DNA from: Raillietiella orientalis
Lineage: Eukaryota
Direction of reading: 5' to 3'
Length of the DNA: 64,000 nt
Assembly: GCA_036172245.1 (NCBI GenBank)
Contig: JAYWIR010000091.1
Span: 186,001-250,000 of the forward strand
The translations under genes were made by a program, and so were the position numbers. This document shows positions 1 to 56,040 of this stretch, piece by piece. Position 1 is the first letter of the stretch. Each line of letters starts with the position of its first letter. The notes beneath the pieces are model-generated. The model worked only from the letters and a program-made list of their open reading frames with translations. It made no database searches and was not told where the DNA came from.

Positions 1-757
1 CCGATGTCCGAGATGATCTCGCACACCGTGAAAGGCTCGTCGAGGCTCCTTTTCTCCTCCTCCACGATCGCTGGAGCACCTTTCGGAAGCAGGAGTCGTA
101 AGATATCCCGCTCCGTAGGGGCTCTGGCGTACAGGGGGGAGTAAAATTTCCTAACTATCCCGCGCTTCTAAGCAGGATCCGAGTGCACCCGGCCCGGGTC
201 GTCCAGCAAGCTGGCCCACATGGATTGCCGAGATTGCCTCTCGGCTCCCGCTCGTTACTCCGCTAACCTGCGCATGTCGGTGGTCCTAGCGTGACAACAA
301 GTCAGCAGACAGGCTCGTTCGCTACGGACCCCGGTCCGAAAACCCGGAGGTAGGCGGTGCTGAGGGAACCGGTCACAAAACTCCTGGTCCCACCGCTTGA
401 AACGGTTTGAATCCTAAATTTTCTGCAGCCTAAAGCTCTGTATAAACGTGCGGAGATGTTTCGCCCCGTCTGAAAGCTTTAGCCAGTCCCCTGGAAGTCG
501 CCACGCTTACGAGGGAGGACCCCTGTCGCGGGGGTAAACCCCGAGGAAGATCGGGCGATGGACGGACAGCTCGCAGGGTAACTTGCCGCGCCTGCCCACG
601 CGAGGGCACACGTGCTGATCAAGGAACAAGTAGCCGATGCTGTCCTCCATCCTTGGTTCACTGGCCAACAAATTACAGGTGTGCGCAGCCATGCACACCT
701 CCTTGACCAGGTCATGCTTGTGATTCTGCCCATCTCGTTTCAGGCGAACGTTGAAAT
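1..757 (-). pseudogene. Non-LTR retrotransposon ORF2 fragment (APE C-terminus from FNVRL, linker, start of RT region), A/H-related; host of a B-related insertion
   Basis: Minus strand reads NFNVRLKRDG...NLLASEPRMEDSIGYLFLD...RDRGPPS and further on PKGAPAIVEEEKRSLDEPFT, homologous to other ORF2 copies in the window; broken by stops and frameshifts. Confidence 0.85.
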
Positions 758-1722
758 TTTTTTCCTCGTTCACGCCGGGACGTTGATTGATATAAACGAG
801 CTGGAAACAGTTGTTTCCAGCTTTCGACAATAAAAAGATGCAGCGGAGATTTACGCCTAGCACGCAGGCCAGGAAAACGGAAGAACATGGACGACTGAGG
901 GGTGTCAAAAAAAAAAAAATTGTAAACGGGAGGAGTGGGCCAGGGAACTTTGGTGACGCTCCACAGTCACAGGGAAAGTCAAATGTTTTGGCACCAAAAT
1001 CACTGCGGAGCGTAGAGGAAAAAGGACGCGAGAGGAAAAAAATCAATTGAAAATAAAATGAGGGCGGATCACCCGTTTCGTCGTTCTAAGCGGTTGCTCA
1101 TCCGGCGATGGATACCGGTTAGCTCATCCGTTGTGTCCTCCCATGAGTGTCGACACTCTGCCGCCAATCTGATGAAGTCAAGTTATTTCCTGGTGACATA
1201 ACATCGCCGTCCAGTGTTCTCGAGCACGTCTCGGATTGTGACGACGGCGCGGATGCAACCAACAGTGGAAATCATCGCAGCCATCGAAAGTCCTTGTGGC
1301 CGGAAGAACCGCCGCAGCACTTGTCTAGCGGTGCCCCCCGGTGGCGGGAGACCTTCTGCTAGCCTCCGCTACAGTTCGTGGAGGGCAGCGCCGTCCATAT
1401 CAGGGTGCGGGAACGAATCGTTCGCTTCGCACTGCGCACAGTAGAAAGAAGCCACCCCACCGGAATCCCGTTGTCGCCGCTCGTCGTAGCGCAATCCCCA
1501 GTGCAAGGAGAGCAAAACGTCTTGCTTTTATGCAGGGGGAAACATCGAACCGTACAAACACCAGGGAGGGACTATAAGTTCCTCGGGGGCAACACCAAGA
1601 GCTTCTTCCCACCGAAGTAACCCTTATGGTGTAGTACGAGGAGTGGCGGCATCCGCAATCTCGCTCGTGGCCCATTCGTTAACTGGTTTTGTTCTTCCTG
1701 CAATGATGCAGGAGGAACCTGC
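758..1722 (-). mobile_element. 3' portion of a divergent B-related non-LTR element (ORF2 C-terminus with CCHC finger, 3' UTR, terminus)
   Basis: SCIIAGRTKPVNEWATSEIADAATPR...HWG...DSGGVAS..CAQC; stop at ~1069; terminus (minus) AATCAACGTCCCGGCGTGAACGAGG-AAAAAA then host ATTTCAAC. Confidence 0.85.
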
Positions 1723-2556
1723 AGGGGGTGGCGTGTAAGTCTTCAGTGTAATATTCTTCAGAATAGGGGGCACTCCGGGATAGGTGTCCGCCCTTTGAAT
1801 CCAGGAAGGGCTCCGAGTCTGTTCCTCCCACGCTTGGGGAGGGATCCCCTCGGACGGAGGGTACGCACCTCCCACCCTGGTTGTCTTCAAAGATGAACCC
1901 CGAAAAGAATCTCCTTCCTCATTCTCTCTGGAGGAACACCCTCCTAATAAGGGATGTTCCTGTCCATTTCAATTTCTCCCGAAAAAGCCCGGAAAGGAGC
2001 TGCTTGTAGGAATTTCTTCTCCGGAGGTAACCCGCAGGGGAACCGTTCCTTTATTTATTCTGAAGAGAATCCCAAGGGACGCTTTCGAATTTCAGAAGGG
2101 GTGCTGCAGCTTCCCGCAGGGGAAAAGCTCTCGCTTGCTTCCTTGTGCTCTCTGTGAAGGGGCGATGACACGCAGAAACCAGCCCCCGCAACAGGGGTTC
2201 CGCTTCTTTGAACAACTGGAGAGGTGCCCGTGAGGGCTCCTGCTCCTTCTTGAAAGTGGAGGGCTCCCTCGGTGAAGGGTCCCGCTCCCCTTCGCACGAC
2301 AGGATTGGTAACTCCCCACTCCTGGATTCCTGAGAGGACTTGATGGTCCATACCCATTGTTACGGCCCTCATCGGTAGGCCTCCGGCTTTATCCATTGCC
2401 AGGGATAAAGCCGGAGGACACGCCCGTATGTCTTGGCCAACCTGCGCAATCTTCCAGGAAAAAGTCGGAACCCAAACGACGCAGTGACGACAGTTATCTA
2501 CCGAAGTATTCGAACCCGCGACGCACGATACCACACGCGGAAGCCTAATCCACAAG
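1723..2556 (-). pseudogene. Possible highly degraded ORF1 remnant (zinc-knuckle-like region and low-complexity tail)
   Basis: LWIRLPRVVSCVAGSNTSVDNCRHC...QVGQDIRACP loosely resembles the LW...CxxC..GH...C..C...GH...CP pattern of other ORF1s here. Confidence 0.35.
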
Positions 2557-2559
2557 GCC

Positions 2560-4865
2560 TCTGATGTGGGCCACAGTCTTAATCAGCTCGGAACAGACAT
2601 ACGGTTTTCCAGGGCGAAGCATAGAAGCAAACCTTTTCCACGCTACCACATGGTTAAAGTTCCAACAAAGGAGGGTCTTAATATGCAAACCGAATTGTGG
2701 TGCGTCCGTTAGTGGGAGACAAGATGGACGGCTGGGGGTGGGAGCCCTTGCGGTCGCAATCGACTTGCGTAAATCATTCGACAGCGTCGACCAGAATCCC
2801 CTGCTGGAGCTTCTGAATTGCCTGGGCTTCCCGTCCCCTTTCTTGGCCTACCTGCGCTCCAGTAGGCGTGACGGGCTTATTAAAGTGATTTCCAGCGGGC
2901 ATACCGTGCACGGTGTACCGTTGCGACGCGGCATACGGCATGGAGACAGCCTGAGCCCTTGCTCTTAAGCACCTATTATTGTTTAGAGCCGAGAGCGTAC
3001 AGGGAGACTCTGACGCACCTGCCGCGCGATTATCTCGGTACGCCTGCGGTTTTGGCATACGCGGACGATTTGCTGCGGCTACTCCCTATGTCCACCCCGC
3101 CTTCGGCGGTGGAGGAGTTCTCCGACCTGTTGAGTCGAGGGAAAGAATTAACGATGAACAGGGCGAAGTCGTCCGTAATGCCAAGCGGATCGGCGTATGC
3201 ACGGCAACAGGACTGGGTCCCTTTGGGGATCCCCACGGTGAGGTAATTGAAAAACATTGTTGTGCTGTTCGGGGATTATTCCTCTGCGGAGGCGTCGTCC
3301 GCCTGCCTTTAGAAGGTTGAGGCGGCGATCGGTCCGTTTCACGACGGCAGGTTCTTCCTTCAGGAACGGACCACGGCGTAGAAAGCGTTTGCAGCCCCCC
3401 TTCTTCGCCCCTTGCTTTTTGATTCCTCCTTGTTAGGGGAGTTAAAGAAGTGAACGAAGCACTTCCTGAGGATCGCAACTTGGGGAAGAGGGAGGCCCGA
3501 GTACGTCCTGTGGACTTGTGTGCTTCGCGTCGTGATGGTGATATGAGCCTGCTGACGCTGGAGCGGCTAAAGCTTCAGCTCAATTCCGGATATTTGACTC
3601 TATGGCAAAGAACTGGTGCACCCCTTGGTGCGTCCCTGCACGTCTCCTTGTCGAGCTGGCCTCCGCTACGCGGAACTGCCTTCTACTTTGTACTCCGAAG
3701 AACCATCTGCCACTGCGGCATTCAGCTCCGCAGGGAGGCCAAACTCGTGAAGAAAAACACGGGATCGATCTTTGTACGAACGCGAAAGGCTCTGCCTGAC
3801 TGCAGGAAGCCCTTCGCAGGTTAGCGATGACTCAGGAGCAGATCACACAACACAAGCGAATAGCTCTGTTGGGGCCGCACGACCACCGCACGCTCCAAGA
3901 AATCGTCGTGGATCCCCGGAGGAGAGCGTGGCTACAAAAAACCTCCCTTGCTGCGGTACTGCCTACTTTTTGAGAACATCTAAGCAGCGACATCGCGGCA
4001 CAATGGGAGGCTACTCTCAAGATCGTCAACAGGGTATAGAAGATCGGGGAATGGAGAACGGGCGAACTGATCAACGCTGCGACCCCGAGTTTCACATCGC
4101 ACGGACTTTTGTGCTGGGGTGAGCTACTGGATGTTCCAGAGGAACCTCTTGAGTGGCACCCGATGCTCATGGACTCGCACACCCTCCCCATGAACGGGCA
4201 AGCGTCGTAACCGCTGGTGTTGCATTGGGGCCTCCCCTGTATTTCTGCCGACAGCACTGTACGCGGGGGGGTGTCAACCCCAATTGTGTCAGGTGCGGGA
4301 AGAGGAAATACCTCCTCCACCAGTTAGTGGATTGTGTTGCCCTCCGTCCCTTGTGGGAACGCCTTGCCACGACCCCTGGTATCCCTGATGGTAACCCGAG
4401 AGACGCTTTGCGCTTCCTCTTCGTCCATGACGCCCTGCCTCCAGCAGCCTCTCTTGCAACCCTGTGCTGCCTACACGGTATCGTCATAGCATCGAACAAA
4501 ATGATGGGAGGATTCAGTGACAGGAATGACATCGCTTATTGCGCCTGCTTCGTGAGTCTGGCGACGCGATTGCCCCATCTGACATCCGCCATGCAGCAAC
4601 AGTTTCGCGTTATCCTCAAGAGGATGACGGACTCTCCCAGCAAACAGTGATCTCTTCCAGCTGTCTCCCCGGTTTTTGTTTATTATTGGTTTTCATTTGT
4701 TTTAAGTACCCTTCCCCTCTCCTGCCGCGATCAACCGCCACCGTTTGCGCACCGGGAGCCCGGAAGGCTGGAAGTTTGTAGCGCGTGTCTGGAATACTGG
4801 TCCAGTCACAGTTTGTAGAGTTTTCTAGGGAACAACATGCGCCTGTGTACAACCGAGTTTCAATT
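2560..4865 (+). mobile_element. 5'-truncated non-LTR element H' (A-related ORF2: RT to C-terminal zinc finger, 3' UTR), degraded
   Basis: EQTYGFPGRSI, DLRKSFDSVD, GIRHGDSLSP, AYADDL (~3055), CVRCGKRKYLLHQLVDC, stop 4650; degenerate 3' terminal motif ~4831-4860. Confidence 0.88.
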
Positions 4866-5431
4866 GAGATTGCAAACGGTGACGCCTCTCAGGAATTCGC
4901 GAAGTTGTTCTTTTGTACCTGAGAGTTGCCACGCTCTGGAAGGCGGACCCTTATCGCGTGGGCGCATTTCGAATATCTACCGGAAATGGTCAGACAGCTG
5001 CGACGCAACTTTCCCTCGCTTTCCGACTCGTAGGCGCAGGTCGATGTCGACGAGGACGTGATCGATGCTGCTGACCGTTTCCGGAAGATATCCTGACAAT
5101 TTGCGGGTGCGCGTGGCAGGGTACAACTCTTTAACCGTCCGCTCCTGTGCGCGAGGATTATCCGATAGCAGGCCAAGATTGAAGTCTCCCGCTATCAGCA
5201 AAGAACTGCACACGTTCGCCCCCACCAGCCAGTCGCTCTTCAGAGTTTTCAGGAACGCCTCACGATTCTGGTATCTGGCAGGACCGCTGAGAGCGTACAC
5301 GTTTGCTAAGTCGAGGTCGATCGTGTGGGACCATCTGCGAAACAGATGGCCGACTCGAGCGGCTTCGTCGAAGCGCACGCCTTTCACGTCAGCGTCGAAC
5401 GCCGGCTTCATGGAATACGCAAAAAAAACAG
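4866..5431 (-). pseudogene. APE endonuclease fragment of a C-like element; host for H' (at 4866) and D1 (at ~5432)
   Basis: ORF 4977..5519: KPAFDADVKGVRFD...NVYA...LIAGDFNLGLL...SSIDHVLVD...LSDHFR. Confidence 0.9.
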
Positions 5432-7581
5432 GTTTTTCACAAGGGTGAGCCGGGGCTTTTATTATTAAAATTTTCGCAATAACAAAAATTTCATAATAAA
5501 GTCTTATATTTTTATTCAATTGTTTTTCTTTTTAGGACATTTAGAAATTCACGGTTCCTCTGTGGCACTTGTTCTTACCGACCCGGAGGCCGATATGGTC
5601 GATCGCACTGAAGCAAAGAAAAAAAAAACAAAAATAAAAGAAAAAAAGAAAAACTCCTGGAGGACAATGTTTTTGGGGAAGCGGAGGGAGGGAACGAATC
5701 ACGGTACGCTGTGAGAAGGCCTTTGCATCCGGTCACGGATGCAGACGAGTGCTGTCAAATAGTTCTGAAGTCAACGCCAACGGCAGGCCTTCTCCAAAGA
5801 GATAGCTGCCCAGTGGATGACATTCCGACTTTTCCTATCTACCCTTGACGCGGTCCACTTGTCGAGGATCCCGCGTATGCAACAGAGCACTGCTAGCCAC
5901 CCGGAAGCTGGCAAGGCGTCCTGCGCTAGGAGGCGTTGAAATAAAGTTTTCGTGTCGCCGACCGGAATGTTCAGGAGCGACGAAAAGTCGGTCCCACATC
6001 TCCCGGAGAGCGACACACTCTAGAATCAGGTGAGGGAAGGTTTCTTGTTCCCCGCACTCTGTACACTGGGCATACACACTTTCCGATGTCCAGTGACACA
6101 GGCGTGCTCTGCTTAAAAGTGCCCAATGGAGCAGAAACAACGCCGTCCCCTGCCACTGCAGGGGAAGGGTGCCGCTGTCCCAAGACGCTGGCTGCCACTT
6201 CACCTCCTCCGGAGGTATACCGAGCAGCGCGCTTCAGCGTAAAAGTCCGTTCATCGGGACACTCGGGGTACTAGCGTCCGCTAGTTCCCTCGGCGTCCAC
6301 GCCTTCAGTGATTTTTTCCTGCCTCCGATGAGGCAGAACACTTCCCACGATGCCTGTTGGTTGCTATCCCGAACTTCCCTGAGGAAGGGCAGCACTGAAG
6401 CAAGGGGGGTGAAGGAAGCTTACAGAATTTTCCGTGGGTTGGAAACGATCTTTTGGAGTGGCTGACCAGCGTGCCTCCCTCTGCGGAGGCAGGAGAAGTC
6501 CTCATTGCTGATGCCATTGATCTTCACCCATGCGGATACGGACAACTGAAGCAGGTAGTCCAGTCCGCTGGGATGCAGGAGATCCAAGAGTTGTCTCTCA
6601 TCAGAGCAATCAAATCCCGCAGCTGATATCCGCATTGGTTCAGGCTGCGTTCGTGGACTACTAGGATTGTGGTCAATCCGAAGCAGCCGGTTGCCCTGTG
6701 AGCGAGGAGTCTTGAAGGTGCACACCAGGGTGCGATGCAATACATTGTTAAAAATGCAAGTTTTCTAAATAACATCTGTCGCTACATGAGCTCCAACGTC
6801 AGGAGACCAAGTCCACCGTCCCTGCGTGGAGCGCACAAGTCTTTGAGCCGGACGCAACGCCTCCGGTTGCCTTAGAGGGCTTTCCGTATAAGGCCCCTAG
6901 TCCGTGTCCGAATTTATTACGGAGTAGGGCACACAAAAAGTAGGGGCGAAGGAGGGGGGGCGCGAAAGCGTTTCACACGGCGTCCCGTTCCTGCAAGTAA
7001 AACTTGCCGTCCCGGAACGGACCCATCGCCAATTGCACCTTTTGGGGACAGATCAGGCTTCTGCAGAGCAGAAGTCCTCCGAGGGAACGCTAAGGTACTT
7101 GATATACCCGCCCGTATGGATCCCCAAGCGAATCCAGTCCGACCGTCCAGCCCGCGTCGAATCCGTTAATAGTAACAACGACTTCGTCCTTGTTTCCTCG
7201 ATGCCTGTCACGCGGTGCAGCAACCCGAAGAAATCCTTGAGCGCCGATGCCGGTCTCGACCAGGGAAGCAGGAGCAGAAGGTCTTCGGCATAAGCCGACA
7301 CGGCAGGCGTGCCGGGGCACGAGCTCGGAAAGGTTGCCAAAGTCTCACTGTATGCAATCAGCAAGAACTCAAAGTAGATGCTGAAGAGCAGGAGGGTGCG
7401 GCTGTCAACCTGCCTAATGCCGCGACGAACCGGCACGCCAAACACGTGGCTGCGCTGAAATTGATATTCATAAAAGCGAAGCGCCAGCAGGAGCGAAGGT
7501 AGGACAGGGAGACGGCCGGCAATCCCAAGCGTGACAGAAGCTTCAAAAGCACTTCCTGGTCGACGCAGTCGAAAGCCTACG
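5432..7581 (-). mobile_element. Family D copy 1: 3' half from RT KAFD to the 3' terminus
   Basis: KAFDCVDQEVLL, GIRQVDS, AYAEDL, CTECGEQETFPHLILEC; terminus AATAAAAGCCCCGGCTCACCCTTGTG-AAAAA; colinear with 33851-36003. Confidence 0.9.
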
Positions 7582-10280
7582 CCTCCCGAGCGGGATTTCT
7601 CACGAATCCTGCTTCCGAAAGGCGCTTATGCGATCAAGGAAGAGGAAAAAAAGTCACTCGACGAGTCTTTCACGATGGGCGAGATCATCTCGGCCATCGG
7701 AAAGCTCAAGATGCGAAAGGCTCCAGAGAGGACGGCCTGTCCGCGGAGTTTTATCAAACTTTCACGGCTGAGCCAACTCCCTGGTACATCAACTCACCTT
7801 GCTGATACGCGAGACAGGTGACGTTCCCGCCTCGTGTCGTTCGGCAAAGGTGCGGCTTCTCCCTAAGGGAGGAGATCTGAGGAGCATGAACAACTGGCGT
7901 CCCATCACAATAGTGAATGCGGATGCCAAGTTGATAGCTAAGGTTTGGGGTTAGCGTTTGGGACGGGTTGCAAACGCCTTCATCAGCCCGGAACAGACGT
8001 ATGTTGTTCCGGGGCGAAGCATGGAGGCGAACCTGTTCCACGCTTCCACCTGGCTAGAGCTCCAACACGAAAGGGCTTGATGCGCACCGGGAATTCCGGT
8101 GAGTCCGTCAGTCATGCGACGGATGGTCGGATGGGGGAGGGAGCAATTGCGGTCGCTGTCGACTTGCGTAAAGCATTCGCCAGCGTCGACCAGAATCTCC
8201 TGCTGGAGCTTTTGGAACGCTTGGGATTCCCGGCCTCATTATTGGCCTATCTGCGCTCTAGCTGGCGCGATGCGCTAATCAACGTTACTTTCAGCGGGCA
8301 TACTGTTCACGGCGTGCCGGTGCAACGTGGGATCCGGCAAGGAGACAGCCTGAGACCCTTGCTCTTGAGTACCTACTTTGAGTTGGTACTGAAAGCGTAC
8401 AGGGAAACTCTGGCGCACCTGCCACATGAATGCGCCGGAACGCCTGCGGTTTAAGCATATGCGGACGACCTACTGCTACTGCTCCCTATGTCCACCCCGG
8501 CTTCGGCGGTCGAGAAGTTCTTCGACCTGCTGAATCGAGGAACCGGGCTTACGGTGAACATGGCGAAGTCGTCCGTGATGCCAGTTGGTGCGGCGTGGGC
8601 AGGGCAGCAGGACTGGGTCCGTTTGGGGATCCCCACGGTGAGGTACTTCAAGTACCTTGGTGTGCCGTTGTGGGACTACTCCCCTGCGGAAGCGTGGTCC
8701 GGCTGCCTTCAAAAAGTAGAGACGGCTATCGGCCCGTTCCGAGGCGGCAGGTTTTTCCTGCCTGAACGGGCCGCGGTTTGGAACATGTTCGAGGCTTCTC
8801 TCCTCCGTTCCCTGCTTTTTGTTTGCCCCTCCACAGAGAGGATCAAAAAGCGGACGAAGGACCTCCTCCGTATCGCCCTTTGGGGCAACAAGAGGTCCCG
8901 AGTCCGCTTGAAGGAGTTGTGCGCTCCGCGTCGGGACGGTGGTCTCGGCCTCCTGACATTGGAGCGGCTGGAACTGCAGCTCCAGTTCCGGATTTTGGCA
9001 CTTGTGCCGGAGTTGTGGTGCACCTGTTGGTGCGTCACTGCACGTCTCCTCCTTCAGCAAGCCACCTGCAATCCGGGACTTACGTCGTTTCTTGCACTCC
9101 ATCGAAGCCGCATCAACCGAATTAGGCTTCAGCTACGGAGGGTGGCTGCGCTGGCAAGGAAAAATCAAGGATGGAGCACCTGTCTCCCCGCGAACGGTTG
9201 TGCCTGGTTGCAGGAAACCGTTCGTTCGTGGGGACAGTTCGGCATGCAAACCTCCCATCAGGAACGAAGGTTCCTGTTTGGGTGTTACAGAAGTTGCACG
9301 CTCCGTGAGATCCTGGAGGATCCTAAGTAGAGAGCGGGGTCAGGAGGAACTTCCCTCGCTGCTGCGCTGGACTTCCTAGTGGAACAACAGGACAGCGATG
9401 TTGAGGCGAAGTGGGAGGTTACAATATAAATCTCCGGGAAGGAGAAGAAGCAGAGAGAGTGGAAGACGGGCCAGCTAACTGATGCAGCGACCCCGAGTAC
9501 GCCTCCTAATGGACATCTGCGCTGGGTAGCGCTGCTGGATGTTCCGATTGAACATCTGAAGGGGCCCCCGTTTCTTATGAACACTTCCATCCTCCCCCTA
9601 AAATGGTAAGAGTCGGCATTCCTGTTGCAGGACTGGGGACTCCTCTGCAACGCCCGTCGACACCACTGGACCTGGGGAGCGGTGGATCCCAATTGTGTAA
9701 GGTGCGGGGAACGGGATTCCCTCCCCCACCTCCTAGTGGATTGTGTTGCCCTTCGGCCCCTTTGGTTCCGCTTTGCCGCGGCCATCGGTATCCCTTGCAG
9801 CAACCCCAGGGACGCACTAAAAGCCTTCTTCGTTGCCGACGCCCTGCGGCCAGCGTCCTCGATAGCAGCCTTGTGCTGCTTTCGTGGGATCGTCGCCGCC
9901 TGGAGCACGGCGACGGGAGGACCTAGCGATATTGACGCCATCTAGGGCGCCTCCCAATTCCTGAGGAGGGCGTCGCGATGGCGCCACCTGGATGTTCATT
10001 ACAAACAAGAGCTTGCCAGCATCCTGAGAGGGATGATGCGTCCCCAGCAGCAACAGTGATCTCTTCCCGTTCCCTCCCACCCTTTGTTTTTTTTTTTTGT
10101 TTAGTTTTATTGTTTTTCTTCTTTCCCCTGCTGCCTTGGAGGACCGTACCGGTCTGGAAACCGGTAAATTGGCAGGCACCGTGGTTCTTAGCTTCTCGCT
10201 GGAGCATTGCCACAGCCATTAATAATTTGTTTACAAAGTTTATTTTTTTAATAAACGACCCGGAGAAATCCGGGTGAAAA
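7582..10280 (+). mobile_element. Family A copy 0: 5'-truncated (ORF2 RT to 3' end), antisense in the KAFD codons of D1
   Basis: NWRPITIVNAD, DLRKAFASVD, GIRQGDSL, AYADDL, CVRCGERDSLPHLLVDC; flanked by TCGAAAGCCTACG (7569-7581) and TCGAAAGCTTTACG (10281-10294). Confidence 0.9.
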
Positions 10281-10294
10281 TCGAAAGCTTTACG

Positions 10295-43780: not shown

Positions 43781-46164
43781 ATTGAAATCTCCCGCTATCA
43801 GGTGATTTTTTCGCACATTGGTATCTGCCAGCCAGTCGCGCTTCAGGGTTTCCAGCAGCCTGGTGCGGTCGCGGTAACCCTGTTTGCCGCTGGGGCCATA
43901 CACGTTTGTGACGATTAGGTCGTTCGAGTCGGACCAGCTGAGAATCAGCTGACCGATCCGACCGTCGTCATCAAACCGCACGCCCTTTACGGCAGCGTCG
44001 ATGGCCGGCTTCACGAAAAACGCGACCCCGCAGGTGTTGCGGGGGCGGCATCGCCAATACAGCCGACCCCCCGCGAACTTCTCGATCTCCTAGGCGTCTG
44101 CCGCGGTGATCACGTGGATCTCCTGCAGCAGCGCCAGGTCGAGCTGACGCAGGGTGTCGGCCGTATGTCGCCTGTTGCCGTCGTCGCGCATCCCGTTGAC
44201 GTTCCAACAGGCCGCGCGAATCCGACGGCGACTGGCGAGCCCAGGTGTTAGTCCTGGGAAAACGGCGATGCGGCGTCCGCCACCTGCTGGGGCGGGACAC
44301 TAGGTGGAGGGGGAGGGGAGACAGGTACTGAAGGCACCTGTTCCTCCTCCTGCATCGGTGCCGGCGCGTCGGGCGGATCACCTGCAGGTGGAGTCGCGCC
44401 TACCTGTTCGCCTTCCTCCATGGGTTCGGGCTGCTCAGGTTTCGCGACTGCAGGGAGGACTTAACCCCCCTGCTCTCTCTCCTCCATGGGGGTGGCCGAC
44501 TCGACGGCTTCCGGGCGTGGGTATTGCCCCTCCGGGATTCCCACGCTGCCGCTTCCTTCCGGTTTCTCCTCCTCGCTGGTGGAGGGGAGGCGCCTCCTGG
44601 GTTTCTGGGACTTGCGTCCCGACTTCCTGGGGGGTGCCTCCGAGGAGGATGATCTGCTTCCGGCCCCCAGGTCGCACTCACCTGCGGGGGCCTTCTTTGT
44701 CGGAGCCGACCTGCGTACGCCCTTGCGCGACGGGGTTTCGAGCTCGGCGAGCGTTGCTGCGAGCTCCTCCGCCGCTTTGTCGAAGGCCGCGTCTTCGCCA
44801 GCGGCGACCGTTGCCGCGGGCTGCCCCGCGACTTTATCGAGCGCGGCGTCCTGGCTGTCGGCGCGCTAGTCTCGCGTCTCACCCTCTAAACGTAGATTGG
44901 GCACGTCCACGCGAGTATTCATCCCGTCTGCATCAGCTGTTCCGTGAACATTGCCGCGGGCGGACTCGGCAGGAACGGCTAAGCGTTCCAGTGCCACCGA
45001 GCATTCGTAGAGCTGCTTTTTTTTGAAAGCGGCGCAACTTTTTTCTTGTTGCCGGCAGTTTTCTTCTCCGACATTTCTTCTGGCATTAATTTCTTTTTTG
45101 TTTCTTTTTTGTCCTGAACCAGCTGCCAACCCTCCTCCATTTCCGCGTTCACATGAGCTATTTGCTCCGACGTCTGTACGGGAGGAAGGGAGGCTGGCAG
45201 TTGGGAACGGCCATTTTCGCTAGGTGGTCTTTCTACCAGCTTTCCACGTTTTCCCTGCGCCTTTTTGGCAGCAGGGGGCACCGGGGTGGGGCGCTTGGGG
45301 CTCACGCGTGAACGTGACCCTTTTTGCCGCATTTGACACACAATGTTAGGGTACCTTTCTCGTAGATGCCCTACTGCATTGCAGTAGCCACAAAATTGGC
45401 GTTTCCCCACGTACCAGAGGTCCACCGCTTCTTGGCAGACCTCCAGCTTGTGGGGAAGCGCACCACTCTCTTTTACTGTGATACGCGCCGCAGCTTGACC
45501 TCCGAAAAGGCTATTGTAGCCTTGGAAAATCGTGGACTTCGGCCACAACGCGTGCACTTCTCCGTGCTTTTGTAGCTGTTTTCGAACCTCTGACCTTGTC
45601 ATACGACTGGAGATCCCAGTGAGATGGACCACCACCGAGCGGTCCATCGTTATCGGCAAGATCTTCCGACCATCAACGATCAGCGGGTCGGTGATCAGAT
45701 GTCGGGCCAAGGTGATATCCTTGCATACCACCTTGACCCGCTGCCCGCCGCTGAGGACGCAGAGGCCGTCGACATCTTTTTCAAAAATATTGGCGTTCTG
45801 CAGCGCCTTCGTAAAGGCTCGTGCAGTTCGCCCATCGAAAAGGTTGCCTACCTTGTAGACGAGCGAGGGATTATACCCCGCTTTCTTGTAGGCTTCCATC
45901 TCGGCCATGGCTTTCACGCTAGGCGCGGCCACCATGGCGCTCCATGACCTCGGCGTCGCCGGGGACGATTCCGGGGCGGATGCCCCTGATCCAGTAGGCT
46001 GTGGGGACGAACAAGCCTCCATCACGCCTACATCCATCGCGGTGTCCTCTGGCAACGCTGCCATCGGACATTGACGATGTGCACGCACAAATCACTCAAT
46101 AAGAAAAAACACTCGCTTTGCCACGCAGGCGGAGCGCAGGAAAAGCACGTCCGCTCTCCACAGC
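43781..46164 (-). mobile_element. Family C copy 2: 5' end, ORF1 (46064-44248) and APE up to GDFN
   Basis: 5' CTGTGGAGAGCGGACGTG; MAALPEDTAMDVG...CGYCNAVGH; APE WNVNG, QEIH, NVYGP, LIAGDFN. Confidence 0.92.
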
Positions 46165-49107
46165 GGGGATTCGGCGAAGGGGCTCGTAACAAACGCGCGT
46201 ATTTGCACGTGCGTCTTCACGAGAGGAACCCCAATGTCCGTCGCCTGGCCGAATACCGCGGCGGAGCCGAGCGACAAGCCTGGCAATCCGAGTCAGACAG
46301 CATGCTGGATGACCTGGGCCGGGAACGTTCGTCCCCGTCTGCGGTACGGAGTCTCGTGCGTTGTTTTTATTCCTCCCTTTACGCCAAAACACCACCCGAA
46401 CAAGACGCCTCGCGGCGATTGCTCATGAGTGGTTCCGTGGCGATAGGGGACGAGGAAAGAGAAAGCCTCAAAGAACCTTTCACGACCGGTGAAATTCTCG
46501 GGGGTATCAAAAGACTCAAGAGCCGTAAAGTGCCAGGGGAGGACGGCTTGCCTGCGGAGTTCTTTCAGAGTTTCGCGGAAGAGCTGGCCCCCCTGGTGCT
46601 CGAGTTGACAAGGCGAATCCGAGACGAAGGCGATGTTCCCGCCTCGTTTCGGTCAGCCAGAGTGAGGCTCCTCCCGAAGGGAGGAGTCCCAAGGAAACTT
46701 TGCAACTGGCGTCCGATCACGATTGTGAACACGGACGCCAAGTTGATTGCCGGGCTGTGGGCGTCGCGATTGGGGCATGTGTCCAATTCCATAATTAGCC
46801 GGGAGCAGACTTACGCTGTTCCCGGGCGAAGTATGGAGGACAACCTCTTCTTCGCGAGCACATGGATGCACGCGCAGCGGAGCAATAAAGAAGGGACAGG
46901 GAAAATTTGCAACCCTACTTTGGAGCCGCCAGTGGGACAGGGTAGGGACCCTCATGCGGGAAAGGGGGCCTTAGCGATCGCAGTCGACCTCCATAAGGCA
47001 TTCGACTGTCTTGACCAGCTACTCCTCTTGGAGCTCCTGGGTAGCATGGGCTTCCCACCCTCCTTGATTACCTACCTGCGCTCTTGCTTGCGGAACGCGA
47101 TAATCTCAATTACTTTCAGTGGACAAAAGGTGTATGGCGTGCCGGTGCTGCGGGGCATAAGGCAGGGCGACAGCCTCAGCCCCCTGCTTTTTAGCAAATG
47201 CGCTGATTTGGTGTTAAAAGCGTACTGGGTGACTTTGGCCCCCTTGCCGAGCTCGTGCCCCGGCACGCCAGCTGTAGCGGCGTATGCCAACGATCTTCTG
47301 CTCCTCTTACCTATGTGCACCCCGGCGAAGGCGGTCGGAGATTTCTTCGACCTGCTTAGCCGTGGGGCCGGATAACAGGTTAACAGGGCGAAGTCTTCAG
47401 TGTTGAAAGTTGGAGCGACGTGGGTAGGGCAGCAGGAATGGGTCCGTCTAGGGATCCCCACAGTGAGGTGCATCAAGTACCTCGATGTGGCGTTGGGGGA
47501 CTTCTCCCCTGGGGAAGCGTGGTCCAGCTGCCTCCAAAAAGTCGAGACGGCGATCGGCCGTTCCTGGAAGGCAAGTTTCACTTGCCAGAACGGGCCGCGG
47601 TTTGGAACGCCTTCGCGCCCCCATCCTCCGCCCCTTGCTTTTTGTTTCCCCTGCCCCCGTGGAATCAAGAAAGCGGACGAAGAACCTCCTCCGCATAGCT
47701 CTTTGGGGCAAGGGGAGGCCCCGAGTCCATTTGAAGGACTTGTGCGCTCCGCGTCGGGACGGCGGTCTTGGCCTCCTGACGCTGGAGTGCGTGGAGAAGC
47801 AGGTGCGGTGGCGAACCCTCGACATCGCAGCGAAGATGTGGAGCACCGCTTGGTGCATTCCGGCCCGCCTCCTGGCCAGGAATGTGTCCCGCTGCGAAGG
47901 GCTCGCATCGTTTCTTCTGTGCCCTGACCGGAAGATTCGAAGATGCGGTCTATTGCTCGGCCGCATGGCAACCCTGGCAAAGGATAACGACTGGAAGGTA
48001 TATGGCCCTGCCAACTCCTCCGCTTGGTTGGAAGAGTCTGCTGGCACCTGAGCAAAGCACAACAAGAGGTGCGAAGTCCGTTTAAACTGCCTGCGAGTCG
48101 GCTTTTACGCCCGCCGCACTCTCCGTGAAATTCTTGAATTTCCACCGAGTTGCACGTGGGCGTAAGGCACACCCCTTGTTAGGGCGATGCCCTTCCTTCA
48201 AAGGGCGCTTCACGAAAGCCGGAAGTCAAGGTGGCGAGTCTGCTGCCGTATCGCAGGGAGAGAGAAGATGATGAGCGTCTGGACCATGGGAGAGTTGACA
48301 GATGCAACGACCCCTAGTCTCCAGCCGCGTGCATTAAGAAGATGGGGCGAGCTGCTCGGCATTCGATTGGATGACCTGAAGTGGCCCCCGGTTCTACTTG
48401 GATCCAGGATTCTTCCCCTGAAGTGGCAAGAATCGGCGCTTCTGTGGCTGCATTGGGGTCTACCCTGCAACGCGCGCCGCTTCCACTGGACGCGGGGAAG
48501 AGTAAATCCTGCGTGTGCCAGGTGTGGGGAGCGGGAGTCGCTCCCCCACCTCTAAGTTGAATGCCCTGCCGTCCAGATTCTTTGGGATCGTCTGAAAACG
48601 GCCCTCCGGATACCGGATGGTGGCAATGTTGGATGTGTCTTCAGTCTTGTCTTCGTGCGGGACGCCCTCAGTCCAGCCGCAGCCCTGGCAGCACTATGCT
48701 GCATTCGTGGTATCGTGGCGGCCTGGAGTGATGCCGAAGATGAAGAGTGCATCGTGAGGGACGTCATCGAGTATGCTTCTCGCTTCCTGCAGAGAGCTAC
48801 CCGATGGCTCCATCTAGGAAAGCTGAAAAGGGAACTAGAAGGCATCCTGCAAAGGATGGGCGCTCCTAGCAGTTTTCTGTGATCCCTTCCCGGCCCTCCA
48901 AATTTTTTTTTGTGGTTTGTTTTTCTCCTTTATTTTATTTTTGTTTTTTCCCCCATCCCCCTCCACTGTCGAGGAGAGCCACACCGGGCTGCGTCCCGGT
49001 GTCCCGGCAGTTCCGGTATTGCGTGGCCGTCAGTGGGGCCTTGTACCACGTTCTGTATTGACCGTTGAAATGTTTTTAATAAACGTCCCGGCGTAACCGG
49101 GTGGCAA
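46165..49107 (+). mobile_element. Family C copy 4: from the GFG site through RT to 3' terminus
   Basis: GFGEGARN...DLHKAFD...AYAND...CARCGERESLPHL; terminus AATAAACGTCCCGGCGTAACCGGGTG-GCAA. Confidence 0.92.
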
Positions 49108-51715
49108 CGCCGAAACCTGGAGGAAGTTGATGGAGGGGAAACTGGTCACAGAACTCTCGGACTGAGCGTTTTATTTTGTCCCAGTCAGCGAGAGTCTGCA
49201 GTTCGCAACTACGCAGGAATGCGCGCAGATGTTGGCGCGCTCCTGCGAGTCGCAACCAGTCCCCCGGCAGGCGCCACGCTTCGGAGGGTGGACCTCTGTC
49301 GCGCGGATGAATGTTGATCACTAGCCGAGGGTGATCGGACAGCTCCGACGCAATTGCTCCTCGAGTCCCCACCCGCGTACACAAGTGGTTATCGAAGAAC
49401 ACGTGGTCGATTCTGCTTCTCGCCCCGGCTTCATCGGCCAACAAGTTGCGTGTGTGCATAGCCGCACACAACTCGTTGACCAATTGTGCTCGTATGTCGG
49501 GCGCTTCCGACAGCAGGCGGACGTTGAAGTCTCCCGCTATCAGATGCGCCCGCCGCACGCCTGCTTCGGCCAGCCAGTCTCGCCGCAGGGTTTCGAAGAA
49601 CGCAGTGCATTCTGCGCGCCGGTGGCTGGTGCAGGGCGCGTACAGGTTCGTGACTACGAGGTCGATCGATTCGGGCCACTTAAGGACTAGTTGTCCGACT
49701 CGACCTTCCTCGTCGAACTGTGCACTGCGCACCGCATTGGCGACGGCCGGCTTCAGCAGGAAAGCCACTCCGCGGAAGTGGTCTCCTCAACCACGCCAAA
49801 GTAGCCTCCCTCGTGTGAGCCTCTCGATTTCCTGGACGTCCTCTGCTCTGAGGGCATGCACCTCTTGAAGAAGTGCCAGATCGAAAGGTCGCAGTGTGTC
49901 GGCCACGCTACGCCTCTTGCTCTCGCTACGCAGCCCGTTGACATTTCAACAGGCTATACGCAGCTGCCGGCAAGAGGCGATTCCACGCATCTTACTAGTG
50001 ATGGTGGTGGCGTGTGTATTGCCGCCTCCTGTTCGGGAGGCGGCTGGTCGTTGTCCATCTGCGGTGGTGGCGTTTCGGCAACGACCGGAACGTCTGCAGC
50101 CGGACTGAGGTCGATAGGAAGGACCGACCGGATGCTGTCGATGGAGGGATCCCGCGACCTCGCGGACATCGCCTCCTCGCTATCCGAGCGCATCTCCTCC
50201 TCCTCAGCCTGAGGGGGAGCGACGCGCATAGGGTTGCGCGACTTCCGGCCCGCCTTCCTCTTCGGAAGGGCGACGGTGGGAGGGTTTCTAGCTTCCGCCT
50301 TGGACCCGGAAGTTTCCGGGCCCTTAACTTCCGCCGGACGTCTGACGGCCTTCTTTGCAGCCTTAGGCGACTGCATTAAGGTGGCCGCGAGTTCCTCCGC
50401 CGCCTTCGCGAAGTTTTTCTCGTCGCTGCTGCTCGCGTGTTTGTCGCAGGATTGCTGCGGCGGTTCGGCGGCGTTCGCGACGGTTGCGGGAGTCGCGTTC
50501 GCCGATCGACGCTCGATCGACGGAACGCGCTCGATTGTAACGCGGCATTCCTTTATGGACTCGCGCGGCGAAATTTTTGGTTTGCCGACCGCGGGTTTTT
50601 TGGGAACGCTCGCGTTCTGATTTGTATTACTATTATTTTATTTGTAGAGTTTTTGTTTTTTTTGTGTTTCCTTTGTTTTTTTTTTCGACACGACTTTCCT
50701 GTTTTCCTCGTCGGCAGTTGGCTCAGAAGTCTCCTTTTGAGGCTCCTGCTCCTTGTGCACGACTTCTTCTGAGGTCGGCTGTTGGTCGCTCGTTCTTTGG
50801 TTTACTGCCTTCTTCCCCTGATTTGTCGAAGGGGCTGAAGACGTTTTCGCGGCGTTTTTCGGGCACACAGCACTAGTGTGGCCCTTCGCGCAGGAGGTTG
50901 GGCATATGGCATCCGGGCATCTCTTTTGAAGATGCCCGAATGTGTTGCACAGCCCACAGTATTTTTTCCTCCTTACGTACCAGAGGTCGACGAGGTCGTC
51001 GTTGACTTCAAGCTTGTGAGGAAGTTCTTTATTTTCGCGGAGAGTTACGCGTGCGTCCACTCGCCCACTGAATGCGCCTCGATAAGTGAAGGCGTTGGGC
51101 TTTGACCACATCGCGTATATCTCCGCGAATTTGTTGATTTCAGTGCGGATGGCTTCATCGGTCATCCGCACCGTTGTACCCCTGAGGTGGATCACCATAG
51201 AGTGATCCACCGTGTGTGGGAGGAGATTCCGCCCTTCGAACGGAACGGGCGTGCAGAGCAATTTGTGTGTGAGCGCTGCATCTTTGCAGATCAGCTCCGC
51301 GAACTGCACGCCGCTCCGAATCGAGAAGCAAAGAATCTCCTCGTCAGAGATTTCCATCCTACGGATGGCGTTTCCAAATTTCCGCGTTGTAAGCGGTGAA
51401 TAAAGATTTCCTACCTTGTAAAGGAGGGCTGGGTTGTAGCCCTCCTTTATGTAGGCCTGCACTTTGGCGGCCACGTCCGGCGGAGCCGCCGCGGCCACCT
51501 TGTTCCACGCCCTCGCCGGGATGGCGGGGGCTGATTTTCTGGTGAAGCATGACCCTACCTCCATAGGTTGGGGAGACGTGGGCCTCACGTTTCCCGTCGC
51601 AGGTACTGCGGCGTCTTTAGGCATTTCTGCCTTCCAACGGCCGCACTTCCAATCCACGCAACAACCTCTCTTGGTTCCGCTCACGGGAGCTGACCAAAAA
51701 CGCGTGCGGCACCGG
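49108..51715 (-). mobile_element. Family G: ORF1 (51624-49992) and APE up to the GFG site
   Basis: CGLCNTFGHLQKRC; APE NLYAP, GDFNVRLL, SRIDH, LSDH; ends LPPGFG; 5' end degenerate and approximate. Confidence 0.88.
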
Positions 51716-51730: not shown

Positions 51731-52413
51731 TTCAACAGTGGGTTGCTTGTCCTTAGCAGCTATTTCTACCTTGCGGCGTTCGGCGGGAACGCGTTCCACG
51801 ACGACGCTGCATTCTTTTAAATTCTCGCTAACCTGCTATTTTTTTTTTGGTAGCCGTGTTTTTCTTCAATTCGTCGTTCTTTCTTCGACTTTTTCTTTTT
51901 CGCTGTGGCTTCTTGCCATTCCGACACCTGACCGCCTTTGCCGATCTTTTCGGCATCCGTTGCCGGGGTGTCGGCTGCGTCCTGGACCACGGGTGTGGGT
52001 GGCACAGCTTGAGCGGCAGCCCTCACAGGCAGGCATTTCTGTAGCAGCCGCGCGCGTTTTTTTAAGTTCCTCGCGGAAACCACGCTCACAGCGGATTGTG
52101 GACACACTTCCTTTGTGTGGCCCATTGTCCCGCATACCTGACACTGTACGTTGGGCACCTCCTTTTGAGGTGTCCTGACGTGTTGCAGAAGCCACAGTAT
52201 TTGGGCTTCTCCACGTACCAGAGGTCGACGCTTTCTCCGCCGACCACCAGTTTGTGGGGAAGGGTAGAGCCTTCCCGAACGGTTACACGGGCAGTTGTGA
52301 GGCCGCACTAAATTGTGGTATAGTCCTCGAAAGGACTAGGCTTGTTCCATACTTCATGGACCGTGCCTTCTTTTCCAAACGCGGCGCGTAACTTTTCTTT
52401 CCGCATCCGCGCG
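51731..52413 (-). mobile_element. Family A copy 3: internal ORF1 fragment with its truncated 5' end joined antisense to the AFD codons of element E
   Basis: Colinear with ~32495-33180; junction CCGCATCCGC-GCG-TTCGACAGC with GCG microhomology. Confidence 0.88.
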
Positions 52414-54468
52414 TTCGACAGCGTAAAGCAGGAACTCCTTCTGGAGCTTCTGGGACGCTTGGTCCTCCCAACGCACCTCATCGCATACTTGCGCTCGTGC
52501 TGGCATTGCTGCGTTTCTTTCAACGGAAGCCACGTGTACGGCGTTCCAATACGGCGGGGTATCAGGCTGGGAGACAGCTTAAGTTCCTTGCTCTTCAGCA
52601 TCTTCTTTGATTTGGTGCTGAGGGCGTCCAGTCTGATGCTTTCCAACCTGTCGAGCTCATGCCCGGGAACTCCTGCCGTGGCCCCCTATGCTTTCGATCT
52701 TATCCTGCTGCTACCCATGTCCACCCCGGCGTCCATGCTGGAAGGCTTCTTCGAGTTCATTCGTCGGGGAGCGCTCGTGACAGTCAGCAGAAGTAAATAA
52801 ACCGTTGTGCCGGTTGGTTCCACGAGGGAGGGGCAGTCTGACTGGATCCGCCTTGTGATTTCCCTACGGGCAGGTGCTTGAAATACCTTGGTGTTCCCTT
52901 GGGCGCCTGCAGTCCAGCAGAGGCGTGGTCGGACTGCCTTCACAAGGCCGCGACTGCTCTGGGCTCGTTCCAAGGCGGCAAATTCCTCCTTTTGGAACGG
53001 ACCTTCCTGTGGAACATTTTCTTTGCCCCCCTCCTCCGTTCCCTTTTTTTTGTTTGTCCCCCTCCCTACTCGGCTAAGCGCCGGGTGCAACGCCTGTTCC
53101 GGAACGCCTTGTGGGGACCGGCGAGGTCCAGGATCCCCCTCAAGGACTTGACGGCTACTCGGCTGGATGCAGGATTGGGCATCCTGACGTTGGAGCGGAT
53201 CGCACTGCTAGTGCAGTTCCGCATGCTGGCACTTTGTGTCCAGCTATGGCCTACTCCCTGGTGTGCCCCAACACGGGTGCTGCTGCGCCGCTGCACGGGT
53301 GGCGACGGATTACGTTCCTTGCACCTGCGCACGGAGCGCGTCCGGAGAGGATTCGGCTTCCCCCTGAAGTAGCTCTCCTCGCTCCTTGGGAAGCATTCGT
53401 GAATCTCCTGCCGGCCGACGAACTTCAACTCCTGGAGGCAGCAAGCCTTAACGTTTTGGGCATCGCAACACGATGTTTCCCGTTTGGAACTCCATTGCCT
53501 GAAACTTTCCCCATACGGTCCAGTGGGGGAGGTGCTGGAAGACCAGGACCAGTGGACACGCCTAGCCGCTACGCCACTCGCCGAAGCACTGTGTGCACTG
53601 ATGGTGCGAGATGAAAGTGACCTGCCAGCTAGGTGGGAGATCACTTGCGAAATCGCAGGCGAAACCCGACTGCTGGGCGGCTGGCGGACTTGCGAAGTGG
53701 CAGACGCTGCCACACCTCGCATTCTCGCGAAAGGGCTTCTTCGGTGGAGTGAGCTTCTCGGGGTGCCCACCGATGAACTTGTGGTTCCTTCTGCGTGTTT
53801 GGACGCGACTCTCTTCCCCCTTCGGTGGAAGCGGGACGCTTTTCTGCTGGTGCATTGGGGTTTGTACTGCAACCAGCGGGCGCACCTGATTTCCGGGGGA
53901 GTTGCGTCCCCGAACTGTGCCAAATGCGGAGCGATGGAATCGCTTTCGCATTTGCTGTTTGAATGCGGTGCCCTTCAGGAGCTGTGGCGGCGGCTGTCTT
54001 CAGCGTTCCTGCACCCCGGACACACCGCACTGGATTGGATGCGCCGCTTCTTCACGCGTGGCGGTCTTTCTCTTGGAGCGGTCGTGGCAATCATCTGCTG
54101 CGTCCGCGCCATTGTCAGGGCCCGCCACGTATTGTAGATGCAAGCGTTCCCAACCTCGGTCCCCAATACTGCAGCCTGCAACCTGCAAATTTCTGCCGGG
54201 TGGCTGCACCTCGGAAAAGAAGTAAAAACGGAGATTGCCGGCATTCACCGCAGGTTTTAAGAAACGGAACGGCGAAACTGCATACCCCTATCCCCACCGT
54301 CCCAAACTATTTATTTATCTATTGTCCCTCCCCCTCCTCCCGTTCCGAACTCTCATTGTCCCCGGCCTGGTGCCGGGAACCATTCTTCCAATCATATGTT
54401 CCCCCTGCCTGGGAACCCAGTTCCCAGATGCCTTTAGTAATAAACGTCTTGGCGCAACCGGGTAACAA
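52411..54468 (+). mobile_element. Family E (B-related) 3' half from RT AFD to terminus
   Basis: AFDSVKQELL, GIRLGDSL, KYLGV, CAKCGAMESLSHLLFEC; terminus AATAAACGTCTTGGCGCAACCGGGTA-ACAA. Confidence 0.9.
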
Positions 54469-55590
54469 ACAACGACGCAGCAACTTTTAGTATCTACGCG
54501 GCGCGGTGCATTTTCGCTCCGCTTCGCGCTTTTCCGTGCCTTGGTGGCAGTTTTCTTTTTGCAGTTGACCTCCTGCTAACGAGGCTCTTGGCTGTAGCCC
54601 TCAACCTTTTCTGCGATTTTCGCCGTGGTCTCGGAACTAGCCTTCGTCTCAGTGGCGGAGGTGACCTCCCGAGCTGCAGCACGAGCTGCCAGCTTCTTTT
54701 GTTTCTTAGCCGCGCGCTTTCTCGCGTTTTTTGCGGACGCAACACAGACTGAATTCTGGGGGCACACGAGACGGGTGTGCCCCGCTTGCTTGCAATGCTG
54801 GCACTGCACGCTCGGTTACATCATTTTGAGGTGTCCACAGCTGCTGCAGCAGCCGCAGAACTTATGTTTTCCCACGTACCACACGTCGACGGCTTCACCG
54901 TTGACAGTGAGTTTGTGAGGAAACTCAGATCGCTCGCGTAGTGTGACTCGCACTGCGCCCAGTCCGCCAAGCAACCCGTCGTAGTCCACGAACGTGGTGG
55001 GCTTACCCCTAAGCGCGTGCACGGTCCCCACTTTTTCAATTTCGTTCCGGACGGCCTCCTTGCTCATCCGGTACGTAATGCTGGTCAGGTGGATAATCAC
55101 CGACCGGAAGAAGCCACCGGCTGCCCATTATTACGGGGTTCGGAGAAGTCTCTGCGCAAGAGTTGCCTCCTTGCAGATAACTTCGACGAATTGTCCTCCG
55201 CTTCTTATGGACATTGCCAGAAGCTCCTTTTTTTTGATTCCGTGAACGCGCATCGCCTGCGAAAAGGCGCGCGCGTACTCGGGAGAATACAATCCGCCTA
55301 CCTTATATAAGAGGGAGGATAGTACCCCTCCTCCAGGTAGGCGCGAATCTCCGCCATAACCGCCGCCGTAGGCGCAGCAACCACGGCGTCACAAGCACTA
55401 GGTAGAACCAGGGGCGCATCAGTGGGGCAGGGGCCCCCACTTCCATCTCCTCCTAAGGCAATGGAATCATCGCCCCCGGAATCTCACCGGTGGTAAGATC
55501 AGGCATTGCTACCTTATCCTCCACCCACACAACACAAAACAGCACCGGAAATGAGACCTCAGGAGCAGCGACAGGACACGTCCGTTCGAA
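54469..55590 (-). mobile_element. Family H (A-related): 5' end and partial ORF1 (ATG 55506)
   Basis: 5' TTCGAACGGACGTG; MPDLTT...; CGCCSSCGH and CQHCKQAGHTRLVC knuckles. Confidence 0.88.
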
Positions 55591-56040
55591 GCTCCAGGCT
55601 CTAGAAGATTGGGACCTTCTTAAGGCCTCAGTCCGAGAGTTCCGCGAGTAGTTCTCACAGGACCGCCTGCCCCCCGAATTTGGTGAGGGCACTTGCAAAC
55701 ATCGGGCCTGTTTACTGGCCCGTTGGTACGAGAGAACCTCAAATGTCCGTCGCCTTCCTGAGAACCGCGCCGGAGCCGAAAGCCAAGCCTGGCAATCCGG
55801 ATAGGCCAGCTTGCTCGACGACCAGGGCCGGGAATGTTCGTCCCTGGCGTCGGTACGGCATCTCTTGAGCTGTTTTTATTCCTCTTTTTACGCCAGGAGC
55901 CCCCGGATCGAGATGCCTCTCGGCGTTTGCTTCCGGTTGGTGTCCACGCAATAGGGGAGGAGGAAATGTGACAAGTCTACGAGCCTTTTACCACCGGCGA
56001 AATTGTCGCCGGTATCAAAAGTCTCAAGAAGCCTAAAGCT
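55591..56040 (+). pseudogene. C-like ORF2 linker fragment, host of H, abutting the satellite
   Basis: LQALEDWDLLKASVREF...DRLPP...LLDDQGRECSS...EPFTTGEIVAGIKSLKKPKA; colinear with ~20270-20720. Confidence 0.88.

Follow-up and report, generated by a model that had tools for sequence, protein, structure and literature searches.

Zepp, from Chlorella and Coccomyxa, and ZeppL, from Chlamydomonas and its relatives, are L1-type long interspersed nuclear elements (LINEs). The accessible parts of the sources describe Zepp-type clusters as nested, one per chromosome and GC-rich relative to the genome (PMC3446292), Zepp and ZeppL clusters as restricted to putative centromeres (PMC8226300, PMC3446292, PMC9940879), and some ZeppL clusters as flanked by satellites, the structure of the ZeppL regions being called worth further study (PMC9940879). 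In the same material, the criterion for the Zepp grouping is the phylogeny of the endonuclease and the reverse transcriptase (RT) (PMC8226300), a defined target sequence is not named, the arrays consist mostly of 3' ends, and each species has a single family, which in C. reinhardtii is a ZeppL family. The available portions of PMC11005252 and of a 2025 CENH3 preprint held nothing on a target sequence for Zepp or ZeppL; Higashiyama 1997 and Yamamoto 2003 lay outside the scope of the comparison. Herein, we describe an island of LINE copies in Raillietiella orientalis, found in a window of 64,000 nt (the whole stretch analysed: contig JAYWIR010000091.1, positions 186,001-250,000, forward strand). 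As in Zepp and ZeppL, compared by description, the copies are stacked as nested clusters. Unlike them, the island holds several lineages, each with a nucleotide-precise site in the codons for the apurinic/apyrimidinic endonuclease (APE), the linker or the RT, three of them entered in antisense. Judging from the arrangement of the junctions, at least three sister LINE lineages probably integrate target-specifically at short sites in the second open reading frame (ORF2) of their relatives, and the resulting nest was later overlaid by duplication and recombination.

R1 and R2 in the 28S rDNA, and TRAS and SART in telomeric repeats, use multicopy, slowly evolving targets as safe landing sites. LINEs of the R1/R2 type have precise 3' junctions and variable 5' truncation, and R1 and R2 share a target unit at different positions. 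The elements of the island resemble R1/R2 and TRAS/SART in all of these respects: precise 3' junctions, variable 5' truncation, and lineages placed at different positions of a shared target unit. However, the targets of R1/R2 and TRAS/SART are kept up by the host, whereas here they are kept up by transposons alone, so that the niche is made by its occupants. With Tx1L, Tx2L and other LINEs of the Tx1 clade, the elements share the APE type and strict sequence targets. Tx1L sits in the DNA transposon Tx1D; the known transposon target in the Tx1 clade is an unrelated DNA transposon, while here the targets are codons of sister LINEs, and the lineages partition one host gene. In the introduction of PMC4640811, "transposons" appear as one class of target for such sequence-specific LINEs. 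Our literature search, judged mostly on titles and abstracts and with Repbase and Dfam outside its scope, found no description of LINE lineages aimed at the ORF2 codons of sister LINEs. The pattern is a variation on target-specific LINEs and on Zepp-type nesting, and its best reading, in our opinion, is that of a putative sequence-level mechanism for Zepp-like nesting.

Junctions at four short sites

Positions 1-56042 (G+C 52-63%, vs 40% across 56043-64000) are a nest of related pieces of non-LTR retrotransposons with APE and RT on both strands, mapped by self-BLAST and by tiling with six reference pieces at the DNA and protein (translated) levels. There are about 27 element pieces in these 56 kb, every one adjoining another element, as in the nested clusters of Zepp and ZeppL. 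Nine of the 13 recognisable 3' ends are directly followed by one of four short targets, 8 of the 10 full-length 5' ends are preceded by one, and two copies with truncated 5' ends adjoin one too, which amounts to 19 termini at 16 places. The orientation is constant within each junction class. For each additional terminus to fall by chance within the same 14 bp of a ~6-kb element, and in the same orientation, we estimate odds of about 1 in 1000; chance is therefore excluded as the cause, and the shared junctions are real.

Lineage B enters in sense the APE codons G-D-F-N (GGAGATTTCAAT^GTCCGC) with an 8-bp duplication. B1 (14043-19941, +), a full-length copy of 5.9 kb, is flanked by this duplication at 14035-14042 and 19942-19949, and the host reading frame runs on continuously once B1 is removed. 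The host is C1, whose 5' half (11735-14042, +) comprises ORF1 and the APE as far as GDFN with the first target copy, and whose 3' half (19942-23283, +) starts with the second copy and contains the remaining APE, intact TLRNL and GFN sites, the RT and the 3' end. On the minus strand, B2 (43780 to 37876), which is full-length too, and B3 (37867 to 36003), the 5' 1.9 kb of a B copy, form a tandem with a lone GDFN target between them (37868-37875, -; ATTTCAAT). They are hosted at GDFN by Y2 (43781-46160, -), the 5' half of a C-family copy. The 3' part of an old B-lineage copy (758-1740, -) ends at 758 and is followed at 750-757 by ATTTCAAC GTTCGCC, the GDFN copy of an A-like host (1-757, -) that extends from GDFN through the linker to the start of the RT and whose positions 1-119 are 82% identical to 7700-7582. 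The hosts of B are thus two C-family copies and one A-like copy.

Lineage C is found in antisense in the linker between APE and RT, about 135 codons past GDFN. Its flank is CGCCGAAWCC, the antisense of G-F-G, and the 5' and 3' flanks overlap by 13 bp. Its 3' ends lie at 23283, 26299 and 49107 (+) and at 29047 (-), its 5' ends at 29033 and ~46160 (-). C1 ends against a C-like APE fragment located 5' of GFG (23284-23517, -), and C2 (23518-26299, +) against C4 (26300-29033, -), the 5' half of a C-family copy from its full-length 5' end at 29033 to GFG at 26300, with a degenerate empty GDFN at 26716-26722. A lone GFG target (29034-29046, -; CGCCGAAACCTGG) separates C4 from C5x, a C-family 3' part (29047-30380, -). 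Finally, C3x (46161-49107, +), which extends from GFG to the 3' end, adjoins with its GFG the 5' end of Y2 and is itself inserted in the GFG of G (49108-51715, -), a member of a divergent family that is preserved from its 5' end to GFG and has an empty GDFN at 49523-49534. Lineage C has therefore entered both C-family copies and G.

Lineage A is inserted in antisense at TCGAAAGCTTTACG, whose complementary strand encodes R-K-A-F-D beside RT motif A, with a 14-bp overlap of the 5' and 3' flanks. A 5'-truncated copy (7582-10280, +), extending from the RT to the 3' end, adjoins the KAFD of E2 (5433-7581, -), an E-family piece running from the RT to its 3' end that A cut at KAFD. A lone KAFD target (10281-10294, +) separates this copy from the full-length 5' part of another (10295-11734, +), which has a 5' untranslated region (UTR) and an ORF1 with a CCHC-like knuckle and is interrupted at 11734 by the 5' end of C1. 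The full-length 5' end of A(i) (31835-33850, -), which runs unbroken to the APE N-terminus, adjoins the KAFD of E1 (33851-36002, +), an E-family RT from KAFD onward to the 3' end. Another 5'-truncated A copy (51731-52413, -) adjoins the KAFD of F (52411-54468, +), a B-clade element preserved from KAFD in the RT to a canonical 3' end; this junction is ~6 bp short of the other A junctions.

The fourth class, H, is in antisense at the linker codons T-L-R-N-L, with a 3' end at ~4865 (+) and a 5' end at 55590 (-). H1 (2570-4865, +), of a sister lineage of A, runs from the RT to a degenerate 3' end flanked by the antisense TLRNL of a C-like APE fragment (4866-5432, -); this host has an empty GDFN near 5178-5189, and its upstream edge coincides with the 3' end of E2. 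H2 (54469-55590, -) consists of a 5' UTR and ORF1, and its full-length 5' end adjoins the TLRNL of a C-like fragment (55591-56042, +) that extends through an intact GFG-equivalent site to the RT start.

Each of the three tandems holds exactly one target copy, exactly where the preliminary description, made from the sequence alone, had placed them. Its count of about 16 junctions in four homologous windows was borne out as well. The orientation fixed per lineage and the overlap of target-duplication size proved correct for B (8 bp), C (13 bp) and A (14 bp), and the same is true of hosts that differ at one site in copy and sometimes in family.

We also tallied the target copies within the window ourselves. 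GDFN is occupied in 3/8 copies and uninterrupted in 5/8, KAFD in 3/10 and 7/10, GFG in 4/9 (3 events) and 5/9, and TLRNL in 2/9 and 7/9, respectively. Occupied GFG copies read CGCCGAAWCC, and the empty ones deviate at no fewer than two bases. Two of the three occupied GDFN copies, in which the upstream copy is visible, read GATTTCAAT, and the third keeps the downstream copy alone (ATTTCAAC). The B elements' own GDFN copies read GACTTCAAC, and A's own KAFD is two bases off the E-type target; we do not claim self-immunity, since the occupied and empty numbers are too small. In terms of between-family conservation, GDFN ranks at the 97th percentile, KAFD at the 89th, GFG at the 38th and TLRNL at the 15th. 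By this measure, only GDFN and KAFD are strongly conserved stretches, while both linker targets are not, and so the proposal that the lineages home into catalytic codons that are hard to mutate suits two of the four targets.

Precise junctions of fixed orientation, the B1 duplication, the 13-14 bp overlaps, the tandems, empty paralogous sites and truncations at the same base all point to target-specific integration. The scenario we favour is as follows. A clade of L1-superfamily LINEs would have split into lineages, at least three of which would integrate by target-primed reverse transcription at a short site of their own: B in sense at APE G-D-F-N, C in antisense at linker G-F-G, A in antisense at K-A-F-D and, probably, H in antisense at T-L-R-N-L. 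A lineage-specific nick by the APE would fix the 3' junction, a second nick 8-14 bp off would yield the target duplication, and re-use of the duplicated target beside a resident copy would create the tandems; a stem-loop at the 3' end may serve as the recognition signal for the RT. Later tandem duplication and recombination would then obscure the nest. Every insertion supplies new target sites, so the island would be self-feeding and remain clustered, and repeated insertion at a few bases in the enzyme genes of relatives would account for the growth of self-nesting islands.

Separate insertions and copied junctions

The same junctions might also arise if a few chance nestings, each occurring once, were then amplified within the island, whether by duplication (segmental or tandem), by unequal crossing-over or by gene conversion, in which case the junctions would be copies of one another. 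One pair behaves in precisely this way. The C1 and C2 junctions (23283 and 26299) represent a single event copied by a direct tandem duplication of 3,013 bp (20506-23519 = 23518-26535, 85%), which carries the insert (85%) together with 235 bp of host flank (88-90%). C2, the second unit, is a mosaic with a C3x-like RT half (84-95%) and a C1-like 3' half (82-98%). The old B copy and B1 are similarly alike in insert (71.6%) and flank (69.7%), and the piece order is not that of a clean nest, as copying would have it.

Other pairs speak for separate insertions. B1 and B2 are 94.3% identical over 5.9 kb of insert vs 86.2% over 994 bp of the 5' host flanks. The inserts of C3x and C5x are 93.6% identical, and their flanks are unrelated outside the 13-bp target. 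The inserts of C1 and C3x are ~78% identical over 3.1 kb, vs merely 29-40% amino acid identity in ORF1 between host G and the C-family hosts. Three kinds of 5' end join lineage A to KAFD, one of full length, one at the RT start and one at ORF1 position 629, and the hosts are 84% alike (E1 and E2) or 72% (F), one junction being offset by the ~6 bp mentioned above. Neither the single target copy in each tandem nor the different host families within a class would be expected of copied junctions. Throughout, the inserts are younger than their hosts and resemble one another more than the hosts do, the pattern expected of young elements entering old ones. That the host flank of 1 kb which B1 and B2 have in common came from co-transcription or gene conversion was considered and dropped, the flank (86%) being simply the better-conserved APE part of two C-family hosts.

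By our own count, about 15 separate events are represented in the window, with the same target hit in the same orientation about four times by A, about four times by B, five times by C and twice by H. Judging from these identities, junction copying fails for all pairs except C1/C2. The condition under which the preliminary description was to be abandoned, that each junction class derive from one duplicated event, thus applies to that pair alone, and we regard copying as an unlikely origin of the pattern as a whole.

The repetitiveness of the region also raises the question of whether repeats were misjoined in assembly at short shared sequences. Among the runs listed there was no RNA run; one sequencing run, X1, matched the window (25% of words). 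Its Logan contigs cover the stretch piecewise, and none spans it, which would fit an assembly artefact. On 7000-26999 there are 787 of them, at 80-99% identity (18 at ≥99% identity, 82 at 95-99%, 185 at 90-95% and 502 below 90%), and we read this as the presence of many diverged copies in the run. However, the sequences that meet at the junctions are not homologous, an element terminus lying on one side and an internal coding site on the other, and target duplications accompany them. Assemblers do not create such structures; moreover, the copies are 6-30% different, which suffices for separation by long reads. Two X1 contigs, of 3,755 and 1,040 letters, cross from B into 26 and 19 flank letters at 96-98% identity, both short of the 31 letters required for bridging. 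We consider misassembly very improbable as the source of the junctions.

Termini outside the four sites and later rearrangement

Several observations weigh against target-specific integration or limit its reach, and the first concerns six canonical termini that lie outside the four targets. These are the 3' ends of E2 (5433), D (31834), E1 (36002) and F (54468), i.e., 4/13, and the full-length 5' ends of C1 (11735) and G (~51715), i.e., 2/10. The E2 end lies in sense in the APE stretch TCGVAFF, and the E1 end in antisense upstream of the APE of B3 (B position 1862). The end of D, a 5'-truncated B-clade element (30372-31834, +), is in antisense in the APE N-terminus of A(i), and that of F is flanked by antisense ORF1. 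Such termini imply that some lineages are non-specific, have other targets or have been rearranged. A common E target is not supported: the two E 3' flanks are not look-alikes, and all APE sites scored below 12 against the flank of E1. With their 5' ends, and in sense, C1 and G each adjoin the 3' part of an A-family ORF1, at two points separated by ~115 bp on the A scale. The two points may mark a fifth target region of looser definition, or else target deletions at 5' junctions. Most termini thus do lie in the four windows, as first described, but not all of them.

The same six termini would be in keeping with elements aimed at a chromatin domain, e.g., a centromeric or heterochromatic one, with the shared junctions reflecting weak local nick preferences in a region made of LINEs. 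The island adjoins a satellite array, and the confinement of Zepp and ZeppL clusters to putative centromeres, as given in the accessible parts of PMC8226300, PMC3446292 and PMC9940879, agrees with this as well. Nevertheless, some four events per lineage at one nucleotide, in one orientation and with one duplication length are not what such targeting predicts, and neither are tandems with a single target. Taken as the whole explanation, it appears to us even less probable than copied junctions, although regional targeting may operate in addition to sequence targeting.

Class H also falls short of the general picture. Its junctions number no more than two, there is no canonical stem-loop at the 3' end of H1, and H1, a 3' part, and H2, a 5' part, are not demonstrable as one lineage. 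The initial proposition of one lineage per target stands for A, B and C, which are lineage-specific and nucleotide-precise, and is no more than probable for H.

Furthermore, the pieces do not follow one another as a clean nest would require: E1, C3x, G and Y2 all lack the halves expected elsewhere. D (+) and C5x (-) diverge head to head from one homologous ORF2 coordinate (30372-30380, with ~15 bp of overlap at 30365-30380), which looks like the scar of an inversion or of recombination between inverted relatives, and not like a transposition junction. Together with the recombinant C2 within the 3-kb tandem duplication, these facts tell us that recombination moves junctions and has reshaped the island. 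Gene conversion among B copies could have raised insert identity above flank identity. In addition, stops or frameshifts disrupt all element copies of the window, and the evidence base is one 55-kb island.

Target-specific integration by sister lineages remains the explanation we prefer, and it does involve several lineages and host families, as in the multi-family guild first proposed. However, the lineages mostly land in members of their own clade, C even in C-family copies, which brings the island nearer to the self-nesting of Zepp than to a guild whose members are strangers to each other. The accompanying view of insertion as "competitor killing" is conjecture, as is membership of the Tx1 clade. 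With a little less than even confidence, we would tentatively extend our scenario to a self-sustaining transposon ecosystem, in which sister LINE lineages share out the ORF2 of one another as distinct landing sites (APE catalytic codons, two linker sites and RT motif-A codons), each entered in an orientation and with a duplication length of its own. New niches would open as close relatives, such as A and H, switched targets, and new copies would destroy the resident ORF2 while adding targets. Sequence-level homing, and not chromatin tethering, would then hold Zepp-like clusters compact and possibly centromeric.

If the pattern is true genome-wide, lineage-specific targets in the ORF2 of relatives would explain the formation, singleness and compactness of such islands and account for the coexistence of several LINE lineages. 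It would also provide a set of closely related APE domains that recognise at least three distinct targets of 8-14 bp, useful for work on the evolution and retargeting of LINE endonucleases.

The elements, their termini and their surroundings

From their domains, the elements are APE-type non-LTR retrotransposons of the L1 superfamily. RVT_1 was matched in 4/30 long frames scanned. Exo_endo_phos (PF03372) was matched in B at 16083-16682 (E 4.3e-10) and in C1 at 13620-14039 (E 1.7e-5), and RVT_1 lies downstream in the same elements, which places the APE domain 5' of the RT in ORF2. The longest open frame (38926-41058, 710 amino acids, RT, in B2) has human L1 ORF2p as its top solved relative; E values are 4e-37 to 1e-37 against this protein vs 1e-11 against R2 proteins, a comparison limited to solved structures, and the L1 and Tx1 clades are for that reason not separable by the RT match. 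KLFD of B2 aligns with EKAFD of human L1 ORF2p, and GDFN of the element APE with GDVN of exonuclease III. A CCHC zinc knuckle in ORF1 is typical for many L1/Tx1 elements; here, zf-CCHC scored 16.5 bits (E 0.009), under the 20.8-bit cut-off, and a C-x2-C-x4-H-x4-C string is readable in the A ORF1.

Trees of the RT and C-terminal part group F with the pair B1 and B2, E1 with E2, and A with H1. The old B copy is sister to B1/B2 (support 97/97), with D and F outside. In C, the pairs (C1,C2) and (C3x,C5x) join with support 88/95.

All lineages share the 5' end ..GAG[C/T]GGACGTGTTT. Their common 3' end consists of AATAAA, a 5-bp GC stem-loop and GTGRNAA, without an A-run, in 11/11 aligned ends; there is neither a poly(A) nor a simple-repeat tail, and the end looks like the "stringent" type. 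A compensatory change was found in only one of the five stem pairs, so that the stem is conserved and proof by covariation is lacking. The Rfam scan of the whole window gave no match at gathering score and only sub-threshold miRNA-like noise at 5' ends; a 5' ribozyme is consequently unsupported. The first long B frame (14043-14745) is open from base 2 of the element, with no evident 5' UTR, and in B1 it is shifted by one base relative to the frame of the host APE that B1 interrupts.

Among 1.84 billion representatives, the closest public proteins are P0015, which by tblastn is 56% identical to B and 68% to C1, and a fragment, P0100, the next reaching 37%. By these matches, the LINE family is isolated in public protein sets. 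Of the 30 loci that a metagenome scan with the 3'-end pattern returned, blastn and tblastn linked none to the window, and a search of a protein-cluster atlas returned generic RVT_1 clusters alone.

Between the old B copy and H1, positions 1741-2569 (~830 bp) showed no similarity to the window's element pieces at the DNA or protein level. In the A 3' region, runs X2 and X3 pile up to tens of thousands of depth units on a T/A-rich low-complexity spot at 10083-10124, while matching almost nothing else of the 7000-26999 stretch; this depth is probably due to unrelated simple sequence. At its far end, the LINE island is directly adjoined by an AT-rich satellite (56043-64000), which cuts off the last C-like fragment. 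The satellite has a period of 275-278 bp and flips in orientation between 59524 and 59574, and its monomers are merely 71-82% alike.

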